Positions 6,067-50,953 of a stretch of DNA of 64,000 bases are shown in pieces. The translations under genes and the position numbers were made by a program. Below the pieces are notes generated by a model that did not search any database, was not told the origin of the DNA, and saw only the letters and a list, made by a program, of their open reading frames with translations. The DNA is from an uncultured Eubacteriaceae bacterium (lineage in GTDB: Bacteria > Bacillota > Clostridia > Eubacteriales > UBA1433). The stretch is taken from positions 138,398-202,397 of the forward strand of contig CAZHMK010000004.1 in the NCBI GenBank assembly GCA_964533615.1, given 5' to 3'. Positions within the stretch are counted from its first letter, which is position 1. Every line of letters starts with the position of its first letter.

Positions 6067-6242
6067 TATTGCACTCTCCTGTTTTTTTATTCTCTATATG
6101 TTTATATTATATATCAATTTATATATCGATCACTATGAAAGTATACAATATTCTGTTTTTTTATCGCATTTAAAAAAGCTGATATAATTATTGATTGACA
6201 AAATAAAAGCAGATGCATATAATGTAGAATTGAAAATCAAAT

Positions 6243-6343
6243 ATCGATTGGAGAGCTCGCGCAAGCGGGCTGAGAGTAAGCGTATCGCCGCTTTTATCCT
6301 GTTAACCTGATTTGGATAATGCCAACGTAGGAAAATAATCAAA
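6243..6343 (+). promoter_or_regulatory. TPP (THI-box) riboswitch aptamer
   Basis: Contains GGCTGAGAG and AACCTGATTTGGATAATGCCAACGTAGGAAA, close to the TPP riboswitch consensus CUGAGA...ACCUGAUCUGGAUAAUGCCAGCGUAGGGAA. Upstream of thiW. Confidence 0.85.
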
Positions 6344-6351
6344 GCATAGAA

Positions 6352-6387
6352 CACTTCGTAGGATATCCTGCGAAGTGATTTTTTTTA
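6352..6387 (+). terminator. Riboswitch expression-platform intrinsic terminator
   Basis: 11-bp stem CACTTCGTAGG/CCTGCGAAGTG with a 4-nt loop, followed by ATTTTTTTT. Lies immediately before the thiW RBS. Confidence 0.75.
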
Positions 6388-6404
6388 TCATAAGGAGAAT
6401 AATC

Positions 6405-6923
6405 ATGAAAAATCTGAGAACAAAAAAATTAGTTATGGTTGCCTTTTTATCTTCACTGAGCTATGTGCTGAGCACCTTTATTTTTATTCCGAACATGGCA
6501 CCTATGCAGCATTTTATCAATGTTGTCTCCGCAGTGCTGCTCGGGCCTAGCGGAGCGCTGGCATGCGCAACGCTGACGGGATGCATGCGTATGCTTTTCA
6601 ACGGCCGCCCCATCATCGCTGTTACGGGAGCCATTTTCGGCGCGCTGCTGGCGGGGCTTCTATACCGCAAATTTAAAAAACTTTACTGGGCAGTCATCGG
6701 CGAAGTGATCGGAACGGGCATCATCGGCGCTATGGTCTCCATTCCTTTTATGAAGCTGTTTTACGGGCTGCCTGCCGATACGTCACCGTTTTTCTACATA
6801 TCCTTTTTTACTCCCTCTTCCGCCGCGGGCGCGATCCTTGGTTTTCTGCTCCTCTCGGCGCTTAAAAAAACGAAGACGCTTGATAAATTAACTCTTCAAA
6901 GCGGCAGACAAAAAGAAAAATAA
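6405..6923 (+). CDS. thiW: ECF-transporter S component ThiW (thiazole precursor)
   Basis: The ATG at 6405 follows AAGGAGA. About 172 aa, 5-6 TM helices, Gly/Ala-rich helices typical of ThiW. Controlled by the TPP riboswitch. Confidence 0.75.
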   Translation: MKNLRTKKLVMVAFLSSLSYVLSTFIFIPNMAPMQHFINVVSAVLLGPSGALACATLTGCMRMLFNGRPIIAVTGAIFGALLAGLLYRKFKKLYWAVIGEVIGTGIIGAMVSIPFMKLFYGLPADTSPFFYISFFTPSSAAGAILGFLLLSALKKTKTLDKLTLQSGRQKEK

Positions 6924-7066
6924 TAACGCGTTGACAGAATAAGCCTTGGTTTTTTATCTCTTATCTTATACAATAAAAACCATCTTCACAGATTGGCATC
7001 TATTTTTGACGTGAATGCTCTTATGACATTTATACTAAAGTAATAAAATCCTAAGAGGTGTGTGGT

Positions 7067-7756: not shown

Positions 7757-8680
7757 ATGATAGAATTTTCGGTCGTTATCAACCAGGTTCTGATATTATT
7801 TTTTATGGCGCTTATAGGATTCATCGCAGGCAAAACAGGCGTTTTAAAGCAGGAACATAAACCCGTTCTTTCAAAAATGCTGATCAATATCACGCTGCCC
7901 TGCATGCTTGTTGATGCGATCATGTCAACGACCGACAGGCTCAGCTCAAAAGATGTGCTTATCACCCTTTCCGTCTCGCTTGTCACCTACATTGCGGGGT
8001 ATATCCTTGCGATGGCGATCCCGAAATTAATGAAAATAGATCAAGAGCAAAAAGGCGTCTACAGTTTCAGTATGCTTTACACAAATGTAGGGTTTTTAGG
8101 ATTTCCCATTCTTGCGATGATCCTCGGAAAATCCGCGGTCATTTATGCCATTATCTTCAACATCGTCTACTATGCCACCTTTTTCCCGCTCGGTATGTAT
8201 ATGCTGCGCGGCACAAGAACAAGGCCGACATTAAAAGAAATGTTTCCGCCTTTCACAATCGCTTTCATTATTGCGCTTGCATTCTATTTTTTGAAGATAA
8301 CACTTCCTTACCCTATTTTAAAAACGGTCTCTTTGGTAGGCGGCATGACGCTTCCGCTTTCTATGCTGTTTGTGGGGCTTTGTCTATGCGAGGTCGATTT
8401 TAAATCGATCCTCAAAAATAAAAACGTACTCTTTGTATCCTTATATAGAGTACTTCTTTTCCCCGCTGCCATGTATTTTGTACTGCGGCTCTTTACCGAT
8501 AACTTCATCTATATCGCACCCGGCGTGATCATGTTTGCCATGCCCGTTGCCGCGCTCCTTCCCGCTTTTGCCAAAGAGAGCGGCAAGGATGATAAGGAAG
8601 GTGCGGTCATTGTCACCATTTCCACGCTGTTTATGCTGTTCGGTTTGCCTGTTATCGGACTGCTGCTTGCAATGGGATAG
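7757..8680 (+). CDS. AEC (auxin efflux carrier) family transporter
   Basis: About 307 aa, about 10 TM helices, AEC-like N-terminus (VINQVLILFFMALIGFIAGK). The ATG at 7757 follows GAGGAG. Confidence 0.8.
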   Translation: MIEFSVVINQVLILFFMALIGFIAGKTGVLKQEHKPVLSKMLINITLPCMLVDAIMSTTDRLSSKDVLITLSVSLVTYIAGYILAMAIPKLMKIDQEQKGVYSFSMLYTNVGFLGFPILAMILGKSAVIYAIIFNIVYYATFFPLGMYMLRGTRTRPTLKEMFPPFTIAFIIALAFYFLKITLPYPILKTVSLVGGMTLPLSMLFVGLCLCEVDFKSILKNKNVLFVSLYRVLLFPAAMYFVLRLFTDNFIYIAPGVIMFAMPVAALLPAFAKESGKDDKEGAVIVTISTLFMLFGLPVIGLLLAMG

Positions 8681-9108
8681 AATACATTAATCAGATTTTC
8701 CAGTACCTTAAAACATAGCCAACTATATAACAGCAGTGATTAAGTGTTACATTAATCAGATTTTCCAGCACCTTAAAACTTTATAAACTCACATACATCG
8801 ATAATTGCAGTGTTACATTAATCAGATTTTCCAGCACCTTAAAACTAGTTTTATGACAGGTTTTACAGCAGAAGCGTGTTACATTAATCAGATTTTCCAG
8901 CACCTTAAAACTTCATAACCGTAGCACGGACAATTTTTGCAGTGTTACATTAATCAGATTTTCCAGCACCTTAAAACCTTCTATGTCGCTTTTTGATTCT
9001 CTCATTAGTGTTACATTAATCAGATTTTCCAGCACCTTAAAACTATTTTTCTTCAGCAATTCTTTTTTTAGAGTGTTACATTAATCAGATTTTCCAGCAC
9101 CTTAAAAC
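8679..9108 (-). CRISPR. CRISPR array, 7 repeats / 6 spacers (type II-A)
   Basis: Six identical 36-bp repeats (plus strand GTGTTACATTAATCAGATTTTCCAGCACCTTAAAAC) start at 8744, 8810, 8876, 8942, 9008 and 9073. A degenerate copy with 5 mismatches is at 8679-8714. Spacers are 29-30 bp. The transcribed-strand repeat is GTTTTAAGGTGCTGGAAAATCTGATTAATGTAACAC. The degenerate repeat is distal to the cas genes. Confidence 0.97.
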
Positions 9109-9116
9109 CTATAGCT

Positions 9117-9145
9117 ATTTTATCAACAATTTTTCAGTTGTTCAA
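9117..9145 (-). promoter_or_regulatory. Putative pre-crRNA promoter overlapping the csn2 3' end
   Basis: Minus strand reads TTGAAC-N17-TAAAAT with an extended -10 TG (TGATAAAAT). The -10 ends about 8 nt before the first repeat. The csn2 stop codon (9134-9136) lies inside the spacer. Confidence 0.45.
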
Positions 9146-10000
9146 GTAGTTACAGACGCTTTGTGTTAATAAGTCTTTATTTGCTAAATCACATAAAATG
9201 TATAATTCATCTTTTTGGCGCAGTAATGTATCTATTAATTTCCCATTCAGTATAATTGATAAGTTATTTAGAAAAACAGTATGAAGGCTTTGCGCTTCTT
9301 CCCGAGTTGTTATCCCCAATCGTTTTGAAATCAAACTTATAAGTTCATCAGTCATATAATTTACAATTTCTTTATCAATAATAAGTATGTTGCCTTGTTT
9401 CTCAATCGTAGATTTGCTTGAAAGGATCTCGCATATGATGCATTTTTCTTGTTTCTTTAATTCGTCTATAAGCATATCTGTGTCGATAAACTCATCAATT
9501 TCTTTTGAATAAAATATTATAAACTGCATTTCCTTCATTTTCTTAATAGCGTCAACGATAATATCTACAATTTTACCTATTTTTATTTTGTATGTAATTT
9601 GAGATTTTAATATTTTATCAATGTTGATTTCTGAATTGATGAATCCATAGTGATGAAAATATCTTTCATTCAACACATTTAATTTTTCACTGAGTAATAG
9701 TTCTAACGCATCTTTTTCATCCATTTCTTTTAGAACATATTTCACATATTCTTCAATTAATTTATTCCTTCCGTTTAAAAATTGCATTATATCCGATAGA
9801 TTTGTTAAAGTAATGAAACAAAAGTTTCTTACATTCAAATTATGATTATTTAATAAAACTTTAGATTCGTGTTCACTATACTGACTTGCATAATATAAAT
9901 TTTGCCATAGTTTGAAATAATTCGGCTTATTTAAAATTAAAAGTTTGTTGTAATTCGTGCATATCATTTCATTGCCTTTTATTGATAGAATATTAATCAA
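9134..10000 (-). CDS. csn2: Csn2-like protein (fourth gene of the type II-A adaptation module)
   Basis: 288 aa. Called by position: 4-bp ATGA overlap with cas2, directly followed by the array. Composition is similar to Csn2 (Ile/Leu/Lys-rich). Homology was not verified. Confidence 0.5.
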   Translation of the reverse strand: MINILSIKGNEMICTNYNKLLILNKPNYFKLWQNLYYASQYSEHESKVLLNNHNLNVRNFCFITLTNLSDIMQFLNGRNKLIEEYVKYVLKEMDEKDALELLLSEKLNVLNERYFHHYGFINSEINIDKILKSQITYKIKIGKIVDIIVDAIKKMKEMQFIIFYSKEIDEFIDTDMLIDELKKQEKCIICEILSSKSTIEKQGNILIIDKEIVNYMTDELISLISKRLGITTREEAQSLHTVFLNNLSIILNGKLIDTLLRQKDELYILCDLANKDLLTQSVCNYLNN

Positions 10001-10326
10001 AAAATCACCACGCTTTCTTTTGAAACTTTTTTCTCATGATTGTTTCTGCTACCTGACAAAAAAATCATATTTTCATATTGTTTTTCTGTGATTTTAATTA
10101 CTCGTATTTCACCCGAAGATGGCAAAACTTTTTTGAGCTTTGTTATAAAAGAATTATAGTTTACTTCTTTACCTAAAATTTTGGCATAAATAGAATATTG
10201 TATTCGATAGCAACCTAAAGTTAATAGATTTTTTCTGAATTTATTATATTCTTTCACATCAATATTTTCTGTCATTGGCAAGTCATACATTATTAAAATT
10301 CTCACTTTTTTATAATCACTATCCAT
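9997..10326 (-). CDS. cas2: CRISPR-associated endoribonuclease Cas2
   Basis: 109 aa. The N-terminal ILIMYDL beta-strand carries the conserved Asp. Abuts the cas1 stop. Confidence 0.85.
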   Translation of the reverse strand: MDSDYKKVRILIMYDLPMTENIDVKEYNKFRKNLLTLGCYRIQYSIYAKILGKEVNYNSFITKLKKVLPSSGEIRVIKITEKQYENMIFLSGSRNNHEKKVSKESVVIF

Positions 10327-11229
10327 TTAGTATTTTTCCAAAACAGGATAATAAAAATTACGCAGCTTGCCGCTTTCTATACAGGAAAGAACGTCATTGA
10401 CATATACGGCGACTGAATTCAAGATTGAAAATTGTTTACCGCAGATACTGATCTTGTTGTTTAATATGTCTATTAACTCTTTTTTTAATTCTTTATCTAT
10501 TCTGTAATTCTTTCTATCTTTTTTTGTGAGCAGAATATTATAAACGAAGTAATCCACAATGGGTCTGTATATCTCAATCAAATCATCACTTAAATTAAAA
10601 TAATTGTATTCACTTTTGTGATTCAATCCGAGCTGAGTGTTATACCCTCTGCCGATGATTTCTTTTGTTATCAACGTTCGCACAAGATGATAACTGAAAT
10701 TCAAGCATGCGTTGATGATATCTTCTTCAAAGCGCACAAAACTCTCTCCAAACATCTCTTTGAAATATATCCTCGCTATAGTTCCCTCCCTGTTTGTCTT
10801 GTCTCCCAATGTTATGGTAGAAAAAAGATTGATTATTATATCTAATTTATTTATCTTCTTTAATTTTGAAAGAGTATTGATTTGATTTAATATTTTATAT
10901 GATATTATTTTTGTCCAAACTTCTTCTTTAATTTTATCATCCCAGTTGATTTGATTGAGAAGTCTTTTTGAGCTTCTGACATTGTTTTGCAGAGGTTGCA
11001 TTTCTCCTACCGGAAGATGATTATCTCCCATAACAATTACGCATATGCCGGATTTTGCCAGTTCACTTAGCAATCTGCAGGTAATATTGCAAAACATATC
11101 TTCAATAACGATTATACCTATTTCTTCTAAACTAATGTGATATTTTTGCTCCTGATGAATGACTTGTACATGATTGATATTAAGACTTATTTTTTGTGCA
11201 TCTGTAATATAGATTATTCGCCAGCTCAT
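10327..11229 (-). CDS. cas1: CRISPR-associated endonuclease Cas1 (type II)
   Basis: About 300 aa. Motifs NACLNFSYHLV and GLNHKSEYNYFNLSDDLIEIYRPIVD (catalytic His/Asp region). The ATG at 11229 is preferred over the GTG at 11235. Confidence 0.9.
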   Translation of the reverse strand: MSWRIIYITDAQKISLNINHVQVIHQEQKYHISLEEIGIIVIEDMFCNITCRLLSELAKSGICVIVMGDNHLPVGEMQPLQNNVRSSKRLLNQINWDDKIKEEVWTKIISYKILNQINTLSKLKKINKLDIIINLFSTITLGDKTNREGTIARIYFKEMFGESFVRFEEDIINACLNFSYHLVRTLITKEIIGRGYNTQLGLNHKSEYNYFNLSDDLIEIYRPIVDYFVYNILLTKKDRKNYRIDKELKKELIDILNNKISICGKQFSILNSVAVYVNDVLSCIESGKLRNFYYPVLEKY

Positions 11230-11237
11230 TTTCACCG

Positions 11238-11326
11238 TTAAAAGGAAAGAAGCCCTTTCGGGCTTCTTTGGGTTCAGAATTCACGTACAATAATAAGGAA
11301 CTCTGAAAAATCTGATTAATGTAACG
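11238..11326 (-). ncRNA. tracrRNA: tracrRNA (predicted, about 89 nt)
   Basis: Minus strand: CGUUACAUUAAUCAGAUUUUUCAGAGUUCCUUAUUAUUGUACGUGAAUUCUGAACCCAAAGAAGCCCGAAAGGGCUUCUUUCCUUUUAA. The anti-repeat pairs with the crRNA repeat as 23 bp, an internal loop, then 5 bp. It ends in a 10-bp GAAA-tetraloop terminator plus a U tract. Confidence 0.8.
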
Positions 11327-11331
11327 TTTTT

Positions 11332-11360
11332 ATTGTATAAGTAAAAATTTTTCTTGTCAA
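11332..11360 (-). promoter_or_regulatory. tracrRNA promoter
   Basis: Minus strand reads TTGACA (11360-11355), a 17-nt spacer, then TACAAT (11337-11332). The -35 begins 2 nt after the cas9 stop codon. Confidence 0.6.
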
Positions 11361-11362
11361 GT

Positions 11363-14300
11363 TTATTTTGGTACATTTAGATTATACAGCCCTAAAATAT
11401 CCATATTAATTTTTTTTATTTCTATTGTCTTTTTTTGAGTAATGCTAATACAATTTTTAACTATAATTTTTGCATTATTTTTATGAAAATCACCTACAAA
11501 ACCCTCATGCACTGTGGCATCATTATTTACAAATCTGATATATTCATTATTGAATAAATCCATATAAAAATCCAATTCATTTCTATCAACACCAATAAAT
11601 TCATTATATAATGTTTTATAATACTTGCTGTCTTGGAGCACTTTCTTGGTTTTAAAGTCCACGCACACTTTATAAATGGGCATTATATATAATTTCCCTG
11701 TCTCTTTATGCTTAAATACTCTTGAGCAATATTGTTGAAGACTGTCATACATTAAAAAAGTATTTTCCTTTTTATTGATTGATTTCTTTTCAAGCAAAAA
11801 TGGTGTCGTTACTTTTTTTAAATATCTTAACTTTTTGACAATAGGGCTGCTTGTCTTGTCATCCCTCCTTATTCCGTGAATATTATAATTAAATACCTCT
11901 CCTTCCGCTACATTGTTTTCCAGACAGTATGCCACAAATGGATTTATACCGCCAGATGAATATTTTTCTAAGATATCATGCAACTTGTTATATAGATGCG
12001 GATCGTTTTTCTTGCATAAGAGTTCTTTGGTGTTATCATGAAACACTTTTTTTATATTATCTATTGTTTTTTTTATTTCATTATTATCCGCAGAATTATT
12101 TTCCGATGATGTGTTTACATAAATATTTGGAATTTCACTAATTTTATAATATTGATTGTCTTTTTTGTTTTTGATAACTTTTTGTACATTTGCATCATAC
12201 AACTTACCTTGCGGATTTTTTTTAACCTCCATAGAACATCTAGTATTTTCAAATGAAGCTTCTTTTAGCGAATCTCTGATTTTACTCGGCAGATTAAGCA
12301 TATCGAAAAGCTGATCCCTGTTTTCGCTTACTATATTACTCAGCCAGTATTTGTCGGGATTATTTTGTATTAATGCCATCAATCGGCCAATCGGAAGCAA
12401 GATTATGGAAGCAATAACCCCTGCATCAACGGCATGATGGAAGCCTTTATCCCTATCCTTTTCAACACCATTTCTATTTCTGATAATTGCGGTTAATTTA
12501 CCAGGTATTTTAATTATTTTTAAATCTAATTGTTCTTCATTGTTATTTTCATAAGCTTTTAAAAACAACTTTAATTGATTGGCTAATTCGTTTGTGGCAT
12601 AAGCTGTATCGTTTAGATTTCTGTTTTTAAATCTTTTTTCATATTTTATTAATTCACCGGTAAATAAGAGATAGCCTTTTTTAGCGTTGCTAATATTTTT
12701 ATTTGCTTTGATTCGTTTTTCAAATTCTTCGTATTGATTAATTGAAGTAAGGTAAGCAAGCGGTGTTCTCTGCCCTTTATTATGATTGCAATCATAGCAT
12801 GATATAGTTTTATTCGAAAATGAATCATCACCTGTGATGCTTTTTGGCAAGATATGCTCTATTTCACAATTGTTTAAACTAATGGGGGCATTGCAATATG
12901 CGCATTTAAAATCCATTTCTTTTAATAATAAATACTTATTGATATTGTTATCCGTACAATCATATCCTAAATCAACAAGTTTTTTTCTTGCTTCTTCTCT
13001 GGTTCTGAAATTTTCTAATGTCGCTTTTTCATATTCCTTTTTTTGGTCATTTGATAGTATGTTTGTAGTTGCTTCAATGCAAATATACGCGGGATAACCG
13101 TATTTTCTGAAAAGCTTATTGAGCACGGTTATTGCCTTGCGCAAAGATTTTTTTGTTTGAGGCGATGCTACTAAATCGTCAATAAAATTAGTGGATATAT
13201 ACTTTAATTCACCTGCTTCAATGTTCTGATTTATATAATGTTCAATTTTATATTGTTCTGTGTCAGCATTTATTTCATGCGGGTAAGTTCTTTCAATATA
13301 AGATGAATTTTTGTTATACTGTTTCATTAATGAAAGATATTTCTTTATTGCTTTCTCTGAAAAATTTTGATATTTATTTTCAATCTTTGATTTTATTTCT
13401 TTGGTTTTTAGAATATTTAATAATTCATAGCTTAAATGCGGAAGTTTGGTTTCAAGCATATCAAATCTTGTATTCTCATCAGGTGAAATATTAATAATCT
13501 CAATAGCTGTATTATATACATCAATATTTTCTGTTAATTCCTCGAATAACTGCTCATTATTTATAACTTTTTTTATGCTCCGGTATGTTTTAAAAGTTGA
13601 TATAGATTCAGACCCAACAGTTTTTTCACCAATGATTACATTTACTTTGAATTTTTTTCTTATCAGCGGTTTTATTTGTTTTACTGAGTTTAAAATCTCC
13701 TCTTTTAATTCTTCTATTGCAAAAGTTTTTAATTTATAGGTAGTGTTATCAATTTTTTCAAAATAACTTAGATTTTCATTGTTCATTTCATCAACAGAAA
13801 ATTTTAGGTTTGTTAAGTCATTATAAAAATTAAAGTATTCGGCATAAAAATTACTGCTGTTAACTTTCTTTTCTCCGATATAAATCTTACAGTTGCCTAC
13901 AAGATTTTCATATAAATATTTATTATAATTATTATCAAGTTCATACTTTTCAATATCTTCTTTTACTTTATATCTTCCATACTTTGTAAGTGCGTTTAAA
14001 CGCGGAGCACCTGGTCCTTCCCAAAATTGTCTTTTAGAATCTAATATTTGTATAACATCATTTAAAAAATTGTCAGTTAAAACTTGTGGATAATATCTTT
14101 TTTGATTTCCAAATAAAGTTTTCAATTCCTGTATATAGTCCTTATGCGTTATTGTGTATGCTGCTCCTCTATACTGACCATATGTATTCAGCAACTCCTT
14201 TTGTATTTCGCACGGCATATATCCTTTATCTCTTAGCTCTGTCACAAATTCATTTACTCTTTCCTCATCTCCAAAGGGTATATACCCTCTGTGACGCGCA

Positions 14301-14647
14301 AAATATATAATGATATTGATAATATCCTGCATCTCTAATTTTTCGCCACTTTTTATTGCTCGTATTCTCTTTTCCAATAACTTAGAATCAATTGTGTTTT
14401 CATAATAAATATTATTTGCTTGAAATAATTTATACAGCCTTTCAATGCGATGATTTTTTCTTTTTATCCGTCTTCTGATATTGCGGAAATTTCTTCTATC
14501 CACTGCCTTTTCTGCTTGAGAAAAAAAACTGACTCCGCGATCAATAACTTCTTTTTTCGCTAAATCAATTACGCTCCATCCAATATCTGCAACACCCAAA
14601 TCAATGCCAATGGATATATTTTCATTCTTATTTATTTTTTCTGCCAT
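11363..14647 (-). CDS. cas9: CRISPR-associated endonuclease Cas9, compact type II-A ortholog
   Basis: 1094 aa. RuvC-I IGIDLGVADIGWSV, Arg-rich bridge helix RRNFRNIRRRIKRKNHRIERL, RuvC-II YICIEATT, HNH EIEHILPKS...CNHNKGQRTP, RuvC-III GFHHAVDAGV. All catalytic residues are present. Confidence 0.95.
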   Translation of the reverse strand: MAEKINKNENISIGIDLGVADIGWSVIDLAKKEVIDRGVSFFSQAEKAVDRRNFRNIRRRIKRKNHRIERLYKLFQANNIYYENTIDSKLLEKRIRAIKSGEKLEMQDIINIIIYFARHRGYIPFGDEERVNEFVTELRDKGYMPCEIQKELLNTYGQYRGAAYTITHKDYIQELKTLFGNQKRYYPQVLTDNFLNDVIQILDSKRQFWEGPGAPRLNALTKYGRYKVKEDIEKYELDNNYNKYLYENLVGNCKIYIGEKKVNSSNFYAEYFNFYNDLTNLKFSVDEMNNENLSYFEKIDNTTYKLKTFAIEELKEEILNSVKQIKPLIRKKFKVNVIIGEKTVGSESISTFKTYRSIKKVINNEQLFEELTENIDVYNTAIEIINISPDENTRFDMLETKLPHLSYELLNILKTKEIKSKIENKYQNFSEKAIKKYLSLMKQYNKNSSYIERTYPHEINADTEQYKIEHYINQNIEAGELKYISTNFIDDLVASPQTKKSLRKAITVLNKLFRKYGYPAYICIEATTNILSNDQKKEYEKATLENFRTREEARKKLVDLGYDCTDNNINKYLLLKEMDFKCAYCNAPISLNNCEIEHILPKSITGDDSFSNKTISCYDCNHNKGQRTPLAYLTSINQYEEFEKRIKANKNISNAKKGYLLFTGELIKYEKRFKNRNLNDTAYATNELANQLKLFLKAYENNNEEQLDLKIIKIPGKLTAIIRNRNGVEKDRDKGFHHAVDAGVIASIILLPIGRLMALIQNNPDKYWLSNIVSENRDQLFDMLNLPSKIRDSLKEASFENTRCSMEVKKNPQGKLYDANVQKVIKNKKDNQYYKISEIPNIYVNTSSENNSADNNEIKKTIDNIKKVFHDNTKELLCKKNDPHLYNKLHDILEKYSSGGINPFVAYCLENNVAEGEVFNYNIHGIRRDDKTSSPIVKKLRYLKKVTTPFLLEKKSINKKENTFLMYDSLQQYCSRVFKHKETGKLYIMPIYKVCVDFKTKKVLQDSKYYKTLYNEFIGVDRNELDFYMDLFNNEYIRFVNNDATVHEGFVGDFHKNNAKIIVKNCISITQKKTIEIKKINMDILGLYNLNVPK

Positions 14648-14798
14648 GACAATACCCCTTAATTTTCTATATTATTTTTATACGATCATTTTAATAACAA
14701 TTATAAATACATCATATCACCAATTTAAACAATTACAATTATTTTTCTGCAATAATTCTTCTGTTTTGTCATATTTGGTACAAAAACGGTACACATAT

Positions 14799-14828
14799 AA
14801 AAAAAGAGCCCTTTCGGCTCTTTTTTTT
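14799..14828 (-). terminator. Intrinsic terminator after the Ldh2-family gene (bidirectional in form)
   Basis: AAAAAGAGCC-CTTTC-GGCTCTTTTTTTT hairpin flanked by A and T runs, 28 nt downstream of the 14856 stop. Confidence 0.7.
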
Positions 14829-14855
14829 ACCCTCTTACAATTACTCAAACTCTTT

Positions 14856-15962
14856 TCAGACTGTCTCGGTCTGCTCATAGAGCGCAAAGAAATCATCTAT
14901 TTTTGCGCCCTGCGGCAGCCTGTTGTATTTTATGGCAAGGTTCTTTAAATCATTCTGCACAACCATATCCACGGGCACGATGTTTTCCTCCATGCGCCTT
15001 ACCGTATAGTTGTACTCAATTTCTCCGGGAAGGAATATCTCTTCCACATCCGCTTTTTTCTTTGAACTTTTTATCTTCATATAATAGGCATCGACATCAT
15101 TTTGATACTCTTCAAACGGCCTGAATTTATTGATATCGATAGCGAGCATGAAATATCCCAGCCCTTTTCCGCTTCCGCCCGTTTCCCCGCCTGTCATTAA
15201 CGCCGATATCATCTCAATAGCCACGCTCATGCAGTATCCCTTTACGCCGCCAAGCGGAAGGAGTGTGCCTGTGAGGATTCCTTTTAACGGGTTTCTGTCT
15301 TTAAAACCATCAAAGGGGTCGGTCGTGTCGTTGCCGTTTTCATCTTGTATCCAGCCGACGGGGATTTTTTTGCCCGCACGTATTGCCATTTCGATCTTGC
15401 CTCCGGCTACGGTGCTGCATGCCATGTCATACATGATGGGCGGCGTTTTTTTGCCCGGCGGAAAAGCCCAGCTGTTAGGGCCGTTTCCGATCACAGCTTC
15501 AATGCCACCGGTAGGTGCCATGAGTTGTGTCGAACCTGACGCTGCATAACCGATTAATCCTTCATTTACAGCCATAAGCGAATAGTATCCCGCAATGCCA
15601 AAATGATTGCCGCCTTTTGCCGCGGCAAGGCCAATGCCTGTTTTCTTTGCCATTTCAACGGCTTTTTCCATCACCAGCGGAGCGACTGTGATGCCGCATC
15701 CATAATCACAGTCAAACGCCGCCGTACTCGCCGTCTCATTTGTGATACGCACATTTGGTTTTAGATTGATGAGCCCGTTTGTGATGTCTTTTTCGTACAT
15801 TGCCAGCCTCGGCAATCCATGAGAGGCCACACCCCGTATGTCGGATGCGATGAGCACATCCGCACCGCGTTTTGCCGCCGCCTCGTCCATGCCGAAAGAT
15901 TCAAGCGTATCTCGTGCGATCTTCTTTGCCGTATCGATACTTATAATTTTTTCTCTAGCCAA
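14856..15962 (-). CDS. Ldh2-family (malate/L-lactate/sulfolactate dehydrogenase type 2) oxidoreductase
   Basis: 368 aa. N-terminal ...ASDIRGVASHGLPRL... and overall pattern are typical of the Ldh_2 family. Confidence 0.8.
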   Translation of the reverse strand: MAREKIISIDTAKKIARDTLESFGMDEAAAKRGADVLIASDIRGVASHGLPRLAMYEKDITNGLINLKPNVRITNETASTAAFDCDYGCGITVAPLVMEKAVEMAKKTGIGLAAAKGGNHFGIAGYYSLMAVNEGLIGYAASGSTQLMAPTGGIEAVIGNGPNSWAFPPGKKTPPIMYDMACSTVAGGKIEMAIRAGKKIPVGWIQDENGNDTTDPFDGFKDRNPLKGILTGTLLPLGGVKGYCMSVAIEMISALMTGGETGGSGKGLGYFMLAIDINKFRPFEEYQNDVDAYYMKIKSSKKKADVEEIFLPGEIEYNYTVRRMEENIVPVDMVVQNDLKNLAIKYNRLPQGAKIDDFFALYEQTETV

Positions 15963-16035
15963 GTTTTATCTCCTCCTTTATTTGTTTTTAAGCGCTTTAA
16001 AAGGAGCATACTGCTCCTTTTAAATATACAAGTAA

Positions 16036-49072: not shown

Positions 49073-50953
49073 TTATTTACCTGATAATTTTGTTATATAA
49101 ATAAAACTATGCCTTGATTTTCTCTTTTCAAGAGGTGGAAATGTTAAGTAATCACCGTAAATAATGCCCAAAACCAAATCATATTCCTGCGGCACAGGCA
49201 ACATCAATCCTTCAAAAGATATATATTGTGCCTTGCTAAATGCCTGAGCGGGAAAAGTTTGTTTTTTTAGTTGATAAGAGCTGCAGTAATTTGCTACATA
49301 ATCACAGCCAGATTTATCATTATAATATGTTGAAAGCGCTTCTATTTTTTTATGCAAAACTTCATAAGAACAAAAATAAGATTTTATTTTTGTAAAGAAT
49401 TTTTCTTTGGTCACTTTCATAGGATAACCTGTTTTAAAAAGAAGCATATCTCTGTATTTTCTTATTTTTTTTCTTCTTCTATTCTGCTCTTCTCCATATT
49501 CAACAGCTTTATCCAAAGGAAAAATATCAATATATACTCCATTGTATTCTTTTAAAGAAAAACTCTCATTATTAATAAAACCGGTATTTTCCAGTATGAC
49601 TATTTTTGAAAACGGCAAATGATATTCTTTGATTGTATGTCGATTGCATAATTTGCACCCATTGATTATTTGAGTATTAAACAACTTGATAAATTTATTA
49701 TAATCATCTCTTGGCATAATAATATCGACATCATCATCCCATGGTATAAACCCGTTATGACGGATCGCACCCAACAGCGTCCCTTCCGCTAAATAATAAG
49801 TAATATTGTTTTCTATGCAAAAAGCATCCACGATTTTTAGAATCTCCAATTCAATTAATTGCAATTTTTTAAATTGTTCAGGTGAAAAGTTTGCTTTGAT
49901 GAGCTTCTTTTTTTTACGCCAGAAAATCTTCATCAGCGCTCGGCGAAAACACATAGGTATAATAAAATACATTTTGAGTTTTGTCTTGTGCATTTTTGCT
50001 TTCGTAAACTTTTTTTGCGTTCTTTTTTTTATTAAATTTTTATATGAATATTGATAATATCTATTTTTTCTCCAATTAGGAAAATGATTGTCTAAATACT
50101 CATATGCACTATCAAAAAACTGATTCTGAAATTTTCTGTCAGTCGAATTTTTAAGTGTATTAATTCTTGCAAATATATGCATTCTGCATATATTTTCTAA
50201 AACTTCATAAGCGACGTCAAAAACTCCTTTTGATTTATAAAAATCAATTATGCTGTCACATGATTTAAAGATATCAAAAAGTCCCATATTCATGCTGTTC
50301 GTAATAGAATCTGTTCTGTCTGTTCTATAATTGCATAAAGCTTTATCTACCAGCTCAATTTTATTGGCCATTAAAAGTATATTATAGACAATAGCCGAAT
50401 CTTCAAAAACTTGTCCAACGGGAAAATATAAGTCATTATCAATAAATAATTTCCTTCTATACAGTTTATTAAATGCATAAGATTTGCACGCAAATAACAC
50501 TTCTGGATTTTCCTCAACGCTGCCGCCGAAGGCTCTTAAATAATGCAGAGGCATGATCTTTGTTTTATCTTCTTTGAGCTGATTAATGTAACAAACAACA
50601 ACATCGCAGTCTTGATCCACTGCTTTTGAATACATTTCTTCCAGCATATTTGTTTCAACATAATCATCAGAATCAACAAAGCCTATATATTCTCCTTGCG
50701 CCCTTTTTATCCCATAATTACGCGCATCACTGAGCCCACCGTTTTCTTTAGTATACGATTTTATTTTATTGGGATATTTTCGCATATATTCGTCAATAAT
50801 TAATTGCGAATTATCTGGAGAGCCGTCATTAATGACAAGTATTTCAATGTCCTTAAGGCTTTGATGAACTAAGCTGTCTAAGCACTGAGGTAAATATTTT
50901 TCCACATTATAAACTGGTACGACAACAGATACTTTTATATTATTTTTTTTCAT
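49073..50953 (-). CDS. Family-2 glycosyltransferase fused to a LicD domain
   Basis: 626 aa. N-terminal GT2 (VSVVVPVYNVEKYLPQCLDSL, DSDD). C-terminal LicD (YYLAEGTLLGAIRHNGFIPWDDDVDIIM). A basic/hydrophobic linker joins the two. Confidence 0.8.
   Translation of the reverse strand: MKKNNIKVSVVVPVYNVEKYLPQCLDSLVHQSLKDIEILVINDGSPDNSQLIIDEYMRKYPNKIKSYTKENGGLSDARNYGIKRAQGEYIGFVDSDDYVETNMLEEMYSKAVDQDCDVVVCYINQLKEDKTKIMPLHYLRAFGGSVEENPEVLFACKSYAFNKLYRRKLFIDNDLYFPVGQVFEDSAIVYNILLMANKIELVDKALCNYRTDRTDSITNSMNMGLFDIFKSCDSIIDFYKSKGVFDVAYEVLENICRMHIFARINTLKNSTDRKFQNQFFDSAYEYLDNHFPNWRKNRYYQYSYKNLIKKRTQKKFTKAKMHKTKLKMYFIIPMCFRRALMKIFWRKKKKLIKANFSPEQFKKLQLIELEILKIVDAFCIENNITYYLAEGTLLGAIRHNGFIPWDDDVDIIMPRDDYNKFIKLFNTQIINGCKLCNRHTIKEYHLPFSKIVILENTGFINNESFSLKEYNGVYIDIFPLDKAVEYGEEQNRRRKKIRKYRDMLLFKTGYPMKVTKEKFFTKIKSYFCSYEVLHKKIEALSTYYNDKSGCDYVANYCSSYQLKKQTFPAQAFSKAQYISFEGLMLPVPQEYDLVLGIIYGDYLTFPPLEKRKSRHSFIYITKLSGK

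Follow-up and report, generated by a model that had tools for sequence, protein, structure and literature searches.

A probable tracrRNA gene between cas9 and cas1 of a St1/Sa-like type II CRISPR-Cas9 locus from an uncultured Eubacteriaceae bacterium

We analyzed a window of 64,000 nucleotides (nt) from an uncultured Eubacteriaceae bacterium (contig CAZHMK010000004.1). Its minus strand carries a type II CRISPR-Cas (CRISPR, short palindromic repeats that are clustered and regularly interspaced; Cas, CRISPR-associated) locus in the order cas9, predicted trans-activating CRISPR RNA (tracrRNA), cas1, cas2, a fourth gene and the array (Table 1). The original prediction for this DNA had placed a tracrRNA between cas9 and cas1, a claim that conservation and covariation in related loci strongly support. 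We put at roughly 0.9 the probability that positions 11240-11360 of the minus strand constitute a tracrRNA gene belonging to a St1/Sa-like type II CRISPR-Cas9 locus.

The product of cas9 matches the Pfam domains HNH, RuvC_III and WED, and its nearest solved structures are compact Cas9 proteins (E ~1e-54 to 1e-48), including the Protein Data Bank (PDB) entries 5axw and 6rj9, which we take to be SaCas9 and St1Cas9, respectively. An identical copy of the protein is present in public assemblies, and in the databases searched its next relatives show ~51% identity. The start of cas1 (ATG 11229) agrees with public gene calls. Downstream of the cas operon and in the same orientation, as in type II-A systems, lies the array, whose 36-nt repeat reads GTTTTAAGGTGCTGGAAAATCTGATTAATGTAACAC on the cas strand and begins with GTTTTA.

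Table 1 Features of the CRISPR-Cas9 locus and its surroundings; functions of RNA and promoter elements are predicted.
Feature	Position	Strand	Description
Ldh_2 gene terminator	14783-14828	-	upstream of cas9; intrinsic; GAGCCGAAAGGGCUC + U7
cas9 promoter-like sites	14738-14700	-	between Ldh_2 terminator and cas9
cas9	11363-14647	-	1094 amino acids (aa); TIGR01865, E 6.5e-120; stop TAA 11365-11363
tracrRNA promoter (predicted function)	11360-11332	-	TTGACA 11360-11355, 17-nt spacer, TACAAT 11337-11332
Primary tracrRNA (predicted)	11325-11240	-	~86 nt; homologous unit in relatives
Anti-repeat, upper-stem strand	11325-11303	-	GTTACATTAATCAGATTTTTCAG; pairs with repeat nt 12-34
Alternative hairpin of free tracrRNA	11307-11273	-	UUCAGAGUUCC...GUGAAUUCUGAA; 11 base pairs (bp); excludes bulge and lower-stem pairing to the CRISPR RNA (crRNA)
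Bulge strand AGUU	11302-11299	-	faces crRNA U10 G11; relatives have a 2-4 nt tracr-side bulge there
Lower-stem strand CCUUA	11298-11294	-	pairs with repeat UAAGG (nt 5-9)
Linker / nexus-equivalent	11293-11270	-	UUAUUGUACGUGAAUUCUGAACCC; aligns with relatives' UUAUAAC, mini-stem, GNAACC
Terminator	11269-11240	-	10-bp hairpin AAAGAAGCCC-GAAA-GGGCTTCTTT (11269-11246), then CCUUUU (11245-11240)
cas1	10327-11229	-	300 aa; ATG 11229; TIGR03639 (type II Cas1), E 5.6e-83
cas2	9997-10326	-	TIGR01573, E 1.5e-22
Fourth gene	9134-10000	-	288 aa; positional csn2
Array leader and promoter-like site	9109-9145	-	leader 25 nt; TTGAAC-N17-TAAAAT with extended TG; consensus match
CRISPR array	8679-9108	-	7 repeats of 36 nt, 6 spacers; distal repeat degenerate

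Directly behind cas9 stands the promoter that had been predicted, TTGACA-N17-TACAAT beginning 2 nt past the stop codon on the cas strand, which we confirmed base for base. It scores 11/12, compared with 10/12 and an 18-nt spacer for the cas9 promoter, and is the top promoter-like site in the 7 kb scanned (8.4-15.4 kb of the window). We placed the start of the transcript 7 nt past the -10 hexamer and its end at the U tract. The predicted promoter and Rho-independent terminator would thus delimit an RNA of ~86 nt, inside the 75-100 nt size class of tracrRNAs, and the transcript should begin at the anti-repeat, without a leader.

The anti-repeat, GTTACATTAATCAGATTTTTCAG, is the reverse complement of nt 12-34 of the repeat with one T-for-C change, which bears out, on the minus strand, the claimed 23 contiguous bp with one G:U pair. 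It is the sole match to the repeat outside the array within the 64 kb at up to 3 mismatches, with 0 expected (100 shuffles), and it is intergenic in a locus that holds cas9, cas1, cas2 and an array, as expected of a tracrRNA. The duplex had been predicted to continue across an asymmetric loop, AGUU opposite UG, into 5 bp formed by CCUUA and UAAGG. Both elements are found in the sequence, and the folding programs returned exactly this pairing: RNAduplex reproduced the proposed geometry for repeat plus tracrRNA at -37.3 kcal/mol, and RNAfold did so for a repeat-GAAA-tracrRNA chimera, with a minimum free energy (MFE) of -52 kcal/mol and z = -9.1. At the 3' end we likewise recovered the predicted 10-bp GAAA hairpin (-15.5 kcal/mol) and its U tract, which is interrupted; 10 nt separate the end of the terminator (11240) from the cas1 ATG (11229).

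In order to compare this arrangement with that of relatives, we used a scan of representative genomes that yielded 35 loci, all from metagenome-assembled genomes (MAGs) annotated as Clostridia, Bacilli, Mollicutes and similar. The comparative set comprised 25 loci with a readable cas9 3' junction, and the chimera alignment (repeat + GAAA + tracrRNA) comprised 17 loci with known repeats; column shuffles and slid partners served as controls. The order cas9, short gap, cas1, cas2, fourth gene, array is common to the related loci. In 24/25 loci, the gap between cas9 and cas1 holds an anti-repeat that matches the repeat of the same locus, and a promoter with a score of 10/12 or more precedes the anti-repeat, likewise in 24/25. 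The -35 hexamer of most relatives, TTGAC(A/T), falls within the last cas9 codons and their TATAAT after the stop, whereas in the window the entire promoter lies past the stop. In the 24 loci with an anti-repeat, the gap is built from the same modules in the same order, namely the anti-repeat, a bulge of 2-4 nt, a 5-nt lower-stem strand, a conserved UUAUAAC-like motif, a short stretch of variable sequence with GNAACC at its end, and a hairpin followed by several U.

The pairing between repeat and tracrRNA is also supported by covariation. RNAalifold returned 38 pairs on the chimeras of the 17 loci, with compensatory double changes in 29. Paired cells made up 95.5% of the total, compared with 79% in the column shuffles and 41-50% with slid partners, and the covariation score was 0.472, compared with 0.184; the observed values were reached by 0/500 shuffles. 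The upper stem (helix 2) was 96.4% paired, with compensatory changes at 21/26 pairs. The lower stem was 100% paired in the 17 loci and all 3 of its variable pairs were compensatory, the variants being UAAGG:CCUUA, UAGGA:UCCUA, UAAAG:CUUUA, UAGAG:CUCUA and UAAGA:UCUUA. The terminator hairpin covaries at 7/8 pairs. One related locus, L002, has lost its adaptation module: at 10103-10355 its cas1 is cut to the first ~26 nt and the array starts 250 nt past cas9, with cas9, the tracrRNA and an array of 4 repeats retained.

Because of this conserved module, the conservation of the promoter and the covariation across relatives, an independently transcribed tracrRNA on the cas strand is by far the best explanation of the region. 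Degenerate repeats have been proposed as the origin of tracrRNAs (Chylinski et al. 2013, PMC3737331), and long read-through forms are known in other systems. One could hence propose that there is no independent gene here, the anti-repeat being a decayed inverted copy of the repeat and the hairpin the terminator of cas9, with a tracr-like RNA arising only from the cas9 3' untranslated region. We consider this very unlikely, given that the position of the promoter is kept in 24/25 loci, that the anti-repeat co-varies with each locus's own repeat, lower stem included, and that the 64 kb hold no other anti-repeat for this Cas9.

The direction of an array is not always predictable (Chylinski et al. 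2013, PMC3737331), and a functional RNA could in principle be produced from the plus strand if the array ran against the cas genes, as it does in Neisseria or Campylobacter. This appears extremely improbable: the plus strand has no promoter directed into the region, the hairpin read on that strand precedes UUUGGGUUC rather than a U tract, and the fold is weaker there (z = -3.2 compared with -6.0). In addition, it is on the cas strand that promoter and terminator are conserved, and the degenerate repeat is the one distal to the fourth gene.

For the tracrRNA reading, we propose the following mechanism. A near-consensus sigma-70 promoter just past the cas9 stop would start an RNA at ~G11325, directly at the anti-repeat, and this RNA of ~86 nt would pair with each repeat of the precursor crRNA (pre-crRNA) through 23 bp (nt 12-34), the loop AGUU/UG and the 5 bp of CCUUA/UAAGG. 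By analogy with characterised type II systems, Cas9 would bind the duplex and RNase III would cleave it, yielding mature dual guides. The hairpin and U tract at the 3' end would form the terminator of the tracrRNA and, probably, a Cas9-binding 3' hairpin, and the only source of transcripts for cas1, cas2 and the fourth gene would be read-through initiated at the tracr promoter, the cas9 promoter or both. The sequence elements, their uniqueness in the window and their conservation and covariation in relatives are observed; that the RNA is transcribed, processed and bound by Cas9, and how efficient the terminator is, we infer.

Several observations weigh against the tracrRNA assignment. A search of positions 8000-16000 against Rfam at E <= 1 gave no tracrRNA family and only a weak terminator-like match, and the same was true of tracrRNA families for the whole window at the gathering score, where a thiamine pyrophosphate (TPP) riboswitch was matched. 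tracrRNAs, which measure 75-100 nt, lack sequence conservation (Chylinski et al. 2013, PMC3737331), so the Rfam miss does not exclude the class. A generic terminator scan called 0 sites and missed the tracr terminator, because counting the A:U pairs in the stem leaves only 4/8 of the next bases as U. The array gives no sign of recent acquisition or activity, because protospacers were found neither in INPHARED phages (whole array) nor in IMG/VR (spacers 3 and 4), and because the arrays are identical in three assemblies, the window sharing all six spacers with two assemblies that come from separate projects (L036, L037; JGI 3300037528, ENA ERZ27252280). Two further points concern the fold. The nexus mini-stem can form only ~2 bp in the window, as read from the alignment, and the MFE structure of the free tracrRNA is an alternative hairpin at 11307-11273, whose pairing occupies the bulge together with the flanking 3' end of the anti-repeat and a portion of the lower-stem strand.

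In the relatives, the nexus mini-stem has 3 bp (C-N-N ... N-N-G) and covaries, with 82.8% of cells paired compared with 59% and a covariation score of 0.321 compared with 0.112, values reached by 0/500 shuffles. This covarying mini-stem apparently plays the part of the nexus. The original prediction had credited the RNA with a full guide architecture; upper stem, bulge, lower stem and terminator hairpin hold, but the nexus is reduced, with ~2 bp in the window against the covarying 3 bp of the family.

An analogue of the alternative hairpin appears in the MFE fold of nearly all 25 orthologues, in three different registers. Its core has z = -3.2 in the window and a median of -1.8 among orthologues, nearly all of them negative, and the centroid structure of the chimera keeps it. 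This raises the question of whether the hairpin is a functional switch that hides the bulge and lower stem until crRNA and/or Cas9 binds, with the 5' part of the anti-repeat left as a toehold. Its covariation, however, barely exceeds the controls (78.5% compared with 74.9% paired; 2 pairs with double changes), and the nexus mini-stem and the lower stem formed with the crRNA, both of which compete with it, covary better. Moreover, the z-scores are modest and come from related sequences, and the resemblance of the nexus region to the repeat may have produced the hairpin incidentally. We also evaluated the hairpin as a conserved structure with RNAalifold on tracr-only sequences and rejected it, as the terminator alone was returned and the pair count was near the controls. 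A switch therefore seems rather unlikely to us; where hairpin and mini-stem conflict, the mini-stem is better supported, and the hairpin is possibly a free-state fold of uncertain significance.

Relatives including L005, L007, L012, L013 and L024 have a 5' tracr leader of up to ~20 nt (20-30 nt past the cas9 stop) that the window does not have. Judged by eye, this leader is able to pair with the 5' half of the anti-repeat, e.g. GAAAUUGAAA / UUUCAAUUUC over 10 bp in L007, and leader and 3' alternative hairpin together could leave most of the anti-repeat self-paired in the free RNA of these relatives.

The terminator had also been predicted to gate cas1 and the genes behind it, reducing their expression relative to cas9. 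The structural premise of this idea stands and is conserved across the 25 loci: the stem ends 5-33 nt from the cas1 start in 25/25, and the nearest promoter-like matches downstream of the terminator in the window fall on or inside the cas1 start. As there is no space for a promoter between terminator and cas1, transcription of cas1 must cross the tracr terminator. In the window, the U tract has 4 U in the 8 nt after the stem, or reads UUUCCUUUU if the A:U pairs open, compared with 5-7 U in 8 in relatives. It is the weakest-looking U tract among the 25 loci, and the terminator looks leaky.

From this layout it does not follow that cas1 is expressed less than cas9: the stronger-looking tracr promoter adds to the same read-through flux, the terminator looks leaky, and one cas9-cas1 junction, that of L009, has no hairpin. 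In L009 (a Mycoplasmatales MAG, Cas9 35% identical), the tracr gene (6851-6950, plus strand) directly precedes cas9, and the gap from cas9 to cas1 measures 9 nt (10240-10250) and contains no hairpin. This locus serves as a natural control: the hairpin is lacking where the tracr gene sits elsewhere, indicating that it belongs to the tracr gene and not to cas1.

That the terminator is a selected attenuator, setting the ratio of cas9 to cas1, cas2 and the fourth gene beyond forming the 3' end of the tracrRNA, is in our view less likely than not. It would fit the short distance from stem to cas1 in all 25 loci, with no space for a separate cas1 promoter, and the window's nearest promoter-like matches past the terminator, which overlap the cas1 start or lie within it; leak-through would be permitted by the window's weak U tract. 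The L009 locus argues against it, as the hairpin travels with the tracr gene and is missing from the 9-nt gap, and so does the 11/12 tracr promoter, which feeds the read-through, with a net cas1 level that could exceed or fall below that of cas9. In the literature searched, we found nothing on co-option of a tracr terminator for cas1 control. In a more elaborate version, which we regard as quite unlikely, no separate promoter would serve the adaptation genes, their expression would depend entirely on read-through of the tracrRNA transcript, and the 3' end of the tracrRNA would act as a tunable attenuator. Termination would then be altered by Cas9 binding to the nascent 3' hairpin or by the choice between the crRNA-paired and the self-sequestered fold.

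Upstream of cas9, the Ldh_2 terminator and the promoter-like sites indicate that the cas genes form their own transcription unit. The Ldh_2 terminator (14783-14828) has a GAAA tetraloop, as does the tracr terminator, and it explains a weak Rfam match to 'Bp1_162'. At the other end of the locus, the orientation of the array is supported by the distal position of the degenerate repeat and by the promoter-like site before repeat 1. The -35 hexamer of this site lies within the end of the fourth gene, a position that mirrors the tracr promoter hugging the end of cas9, and the pre-crRNA would start 2-3 nt before the first repeat.

The fourth gene had been labelled csn2, a label that no Csn2 model confirmed. 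Csn2 models in Pfam, NCBIfam and PADLOC matched neither its protein nor up to 13 homologues from related loci, a phmmer search of the PDB with the protein was negative, and a word-seeded database search for homologues matched only the protein itself. An AlphaFold2 (AF2) single-sequence model was unusable (predicted local distance difference test, pLDDT, 41). The syntenic homologues in relatives are 15-26% identical to the window protein, and the gene appears to evolve very fast. A profile of 14 syntenic homologues gave Stu0660 (3ZTH), which we take to be the long Csn2 of an S. thermophilus locus, as its top PDB match; the match is weak (E = 0.015), and a KKG(S/T)L..Y motif is common to the profile and Stu0660. 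Identity as csn2 is hence plausible but unproven, and the type II-A label rests on synteny and repeat type.

Two other stretches of the window resemble the repeat. Nucleotides 21-35 of the repeat recur exactly as a 15-mer (CTGATTAATGTAACA) at 50579-50593 on the plus strand, inside an open reading frame (ORF) on the minus strand (49073-50953) that encodes a 626-aa glycosyltransferase-like protein. The mRNA sense of this gene carries an anti-repeat-like 15-mer, 14 nt of which are identical to the 5' end of the tracrRNA, and 100 shuffles gave 0 copies. The 15-mer could be due to chance, or could enable a host transcript to base-pair with the repeats of pre-crRNA. At the 3' end of cas9 (11380-11410, minus strand), NTTTTAGGN, which encodes the C-terminal (I/V)LG motif, mimics the 5' end of the repeat (GTTTTAGG), both in the window and in relatives. 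We considered a natural single guide formed from this repeat-like stretch (TTTTAGGGCTG...AAATGTACC) and rejected it, as its score of 21 is only ~2.3 standard deviations above the window background; the resemblance is due to the conserved (I/V)LG codons. The TPP riboswitch (RF00059, 60.3 bits) is located at 6239-6350 on the plus strand, upstream of an ORF at 6375-6923.

Among type II systems, the interval between cas9 and cas1 is one of four typical positions of tracrRNA genes, and it is the one seen in three type II-A subclusters (Chylinski et al. 2013, PMC3737331). Like these II-A tracrRNAs (PMC3737331), the predicted RNA is encoded between cas9 and cas1 on the cas strand, has a predicted promoter of its own, starts with the anti-repeat and ends in a putative Rho-independent terminator within 75-100 nt. 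Unlike known II-A tracrRNAs, it is unrelated in sequence and matches no Rfam family, its promoter begins past the cas9 stop, its transcript has no 5' leader, and its Cas9 is, apart from the identical copy, at most ~51% identical to proteins in the databases searched. The strings of repeat and anti-repeat gave no match in searchable papers. The CRISPR1/St1Cas9 system of S. thermophilus is an example of a tracrRNA between cas9 and cas1, and the locus resembles St1/Sa systems in that its Cas9 is of the compact class and the profile of its fourth gene points weakly to Stu0660. Published single-guide RNAs (sgRNAs) have a fully paired GUUUUUGUA-type lower stem, whereas the lower stem in the window has only 5 bp followed by UUAUUGUAC.

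The standard scheme of lower stem, bulge, upper stem, nexus and 3' hairpins has been applied to II-A and Mollicutes tracrRNAs (PMC6882279). The predicted RNA follows it in its upper stem, tracr-heavy bulge, lower stem and terminator hairpin, all present and covarying, and departs from it in its weak nexus and single 3' hairpin. A further comparison is offered by tracr-L, a natural single guide of S. pyogenes-type II-A systems. It is a 5'-extended form of a tracr gene upstream of cas9, contains GUUUUA in its lower stem and targets the cas9 promoter through a sequence of 11 nt (Workman et al., bioRxiv 10.1101/2020.05.21.102756). As in tracr-L, a segment of the tracrRNA would pair intramolecularly with the anti-repeat region, with a regulatory flavour. 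In contrast to tracr-L, the window transcript is not extended at its 5' end, would pair with itself through a segment located 3' of the anti-repeat, and has no evident targeting segment.

In summary, a tracrRNA between cas9 and cas1 is an arrangement already described, and the current understanding of type II systems is unchanged. What the analysis adds is the annotation of the RNA that probably partners an uncharacterised Cas9 of 1094 aa, encoded in an uncultured Firmicute lineage of gut type, together with an sgRNA scaffold that can be tested directly from the sequence: N20 + GUUUUAAGGUGCUGGAAAAUC + GAAA + GAUUUUUCAGAGUUCCUUAUUAUUGUACGUGAAUUCUGAACCCAAAGAAGCCCGAAAGGGCUUCUUUCCUUUU. Comparison of the 25 loci shows which modules of this tracrRNA family are conserved, and in all of them the tracr terminator abuts cas1. 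This layout makes it testable whether expression of the adaptation genes is set by read-through. If the 3' end of the tracrRNA were indeed a tunable attenuator, the dose of cas1, cas2 and the fourth gene would be coupled to the guide-RNA and Cas9 status of the cell.

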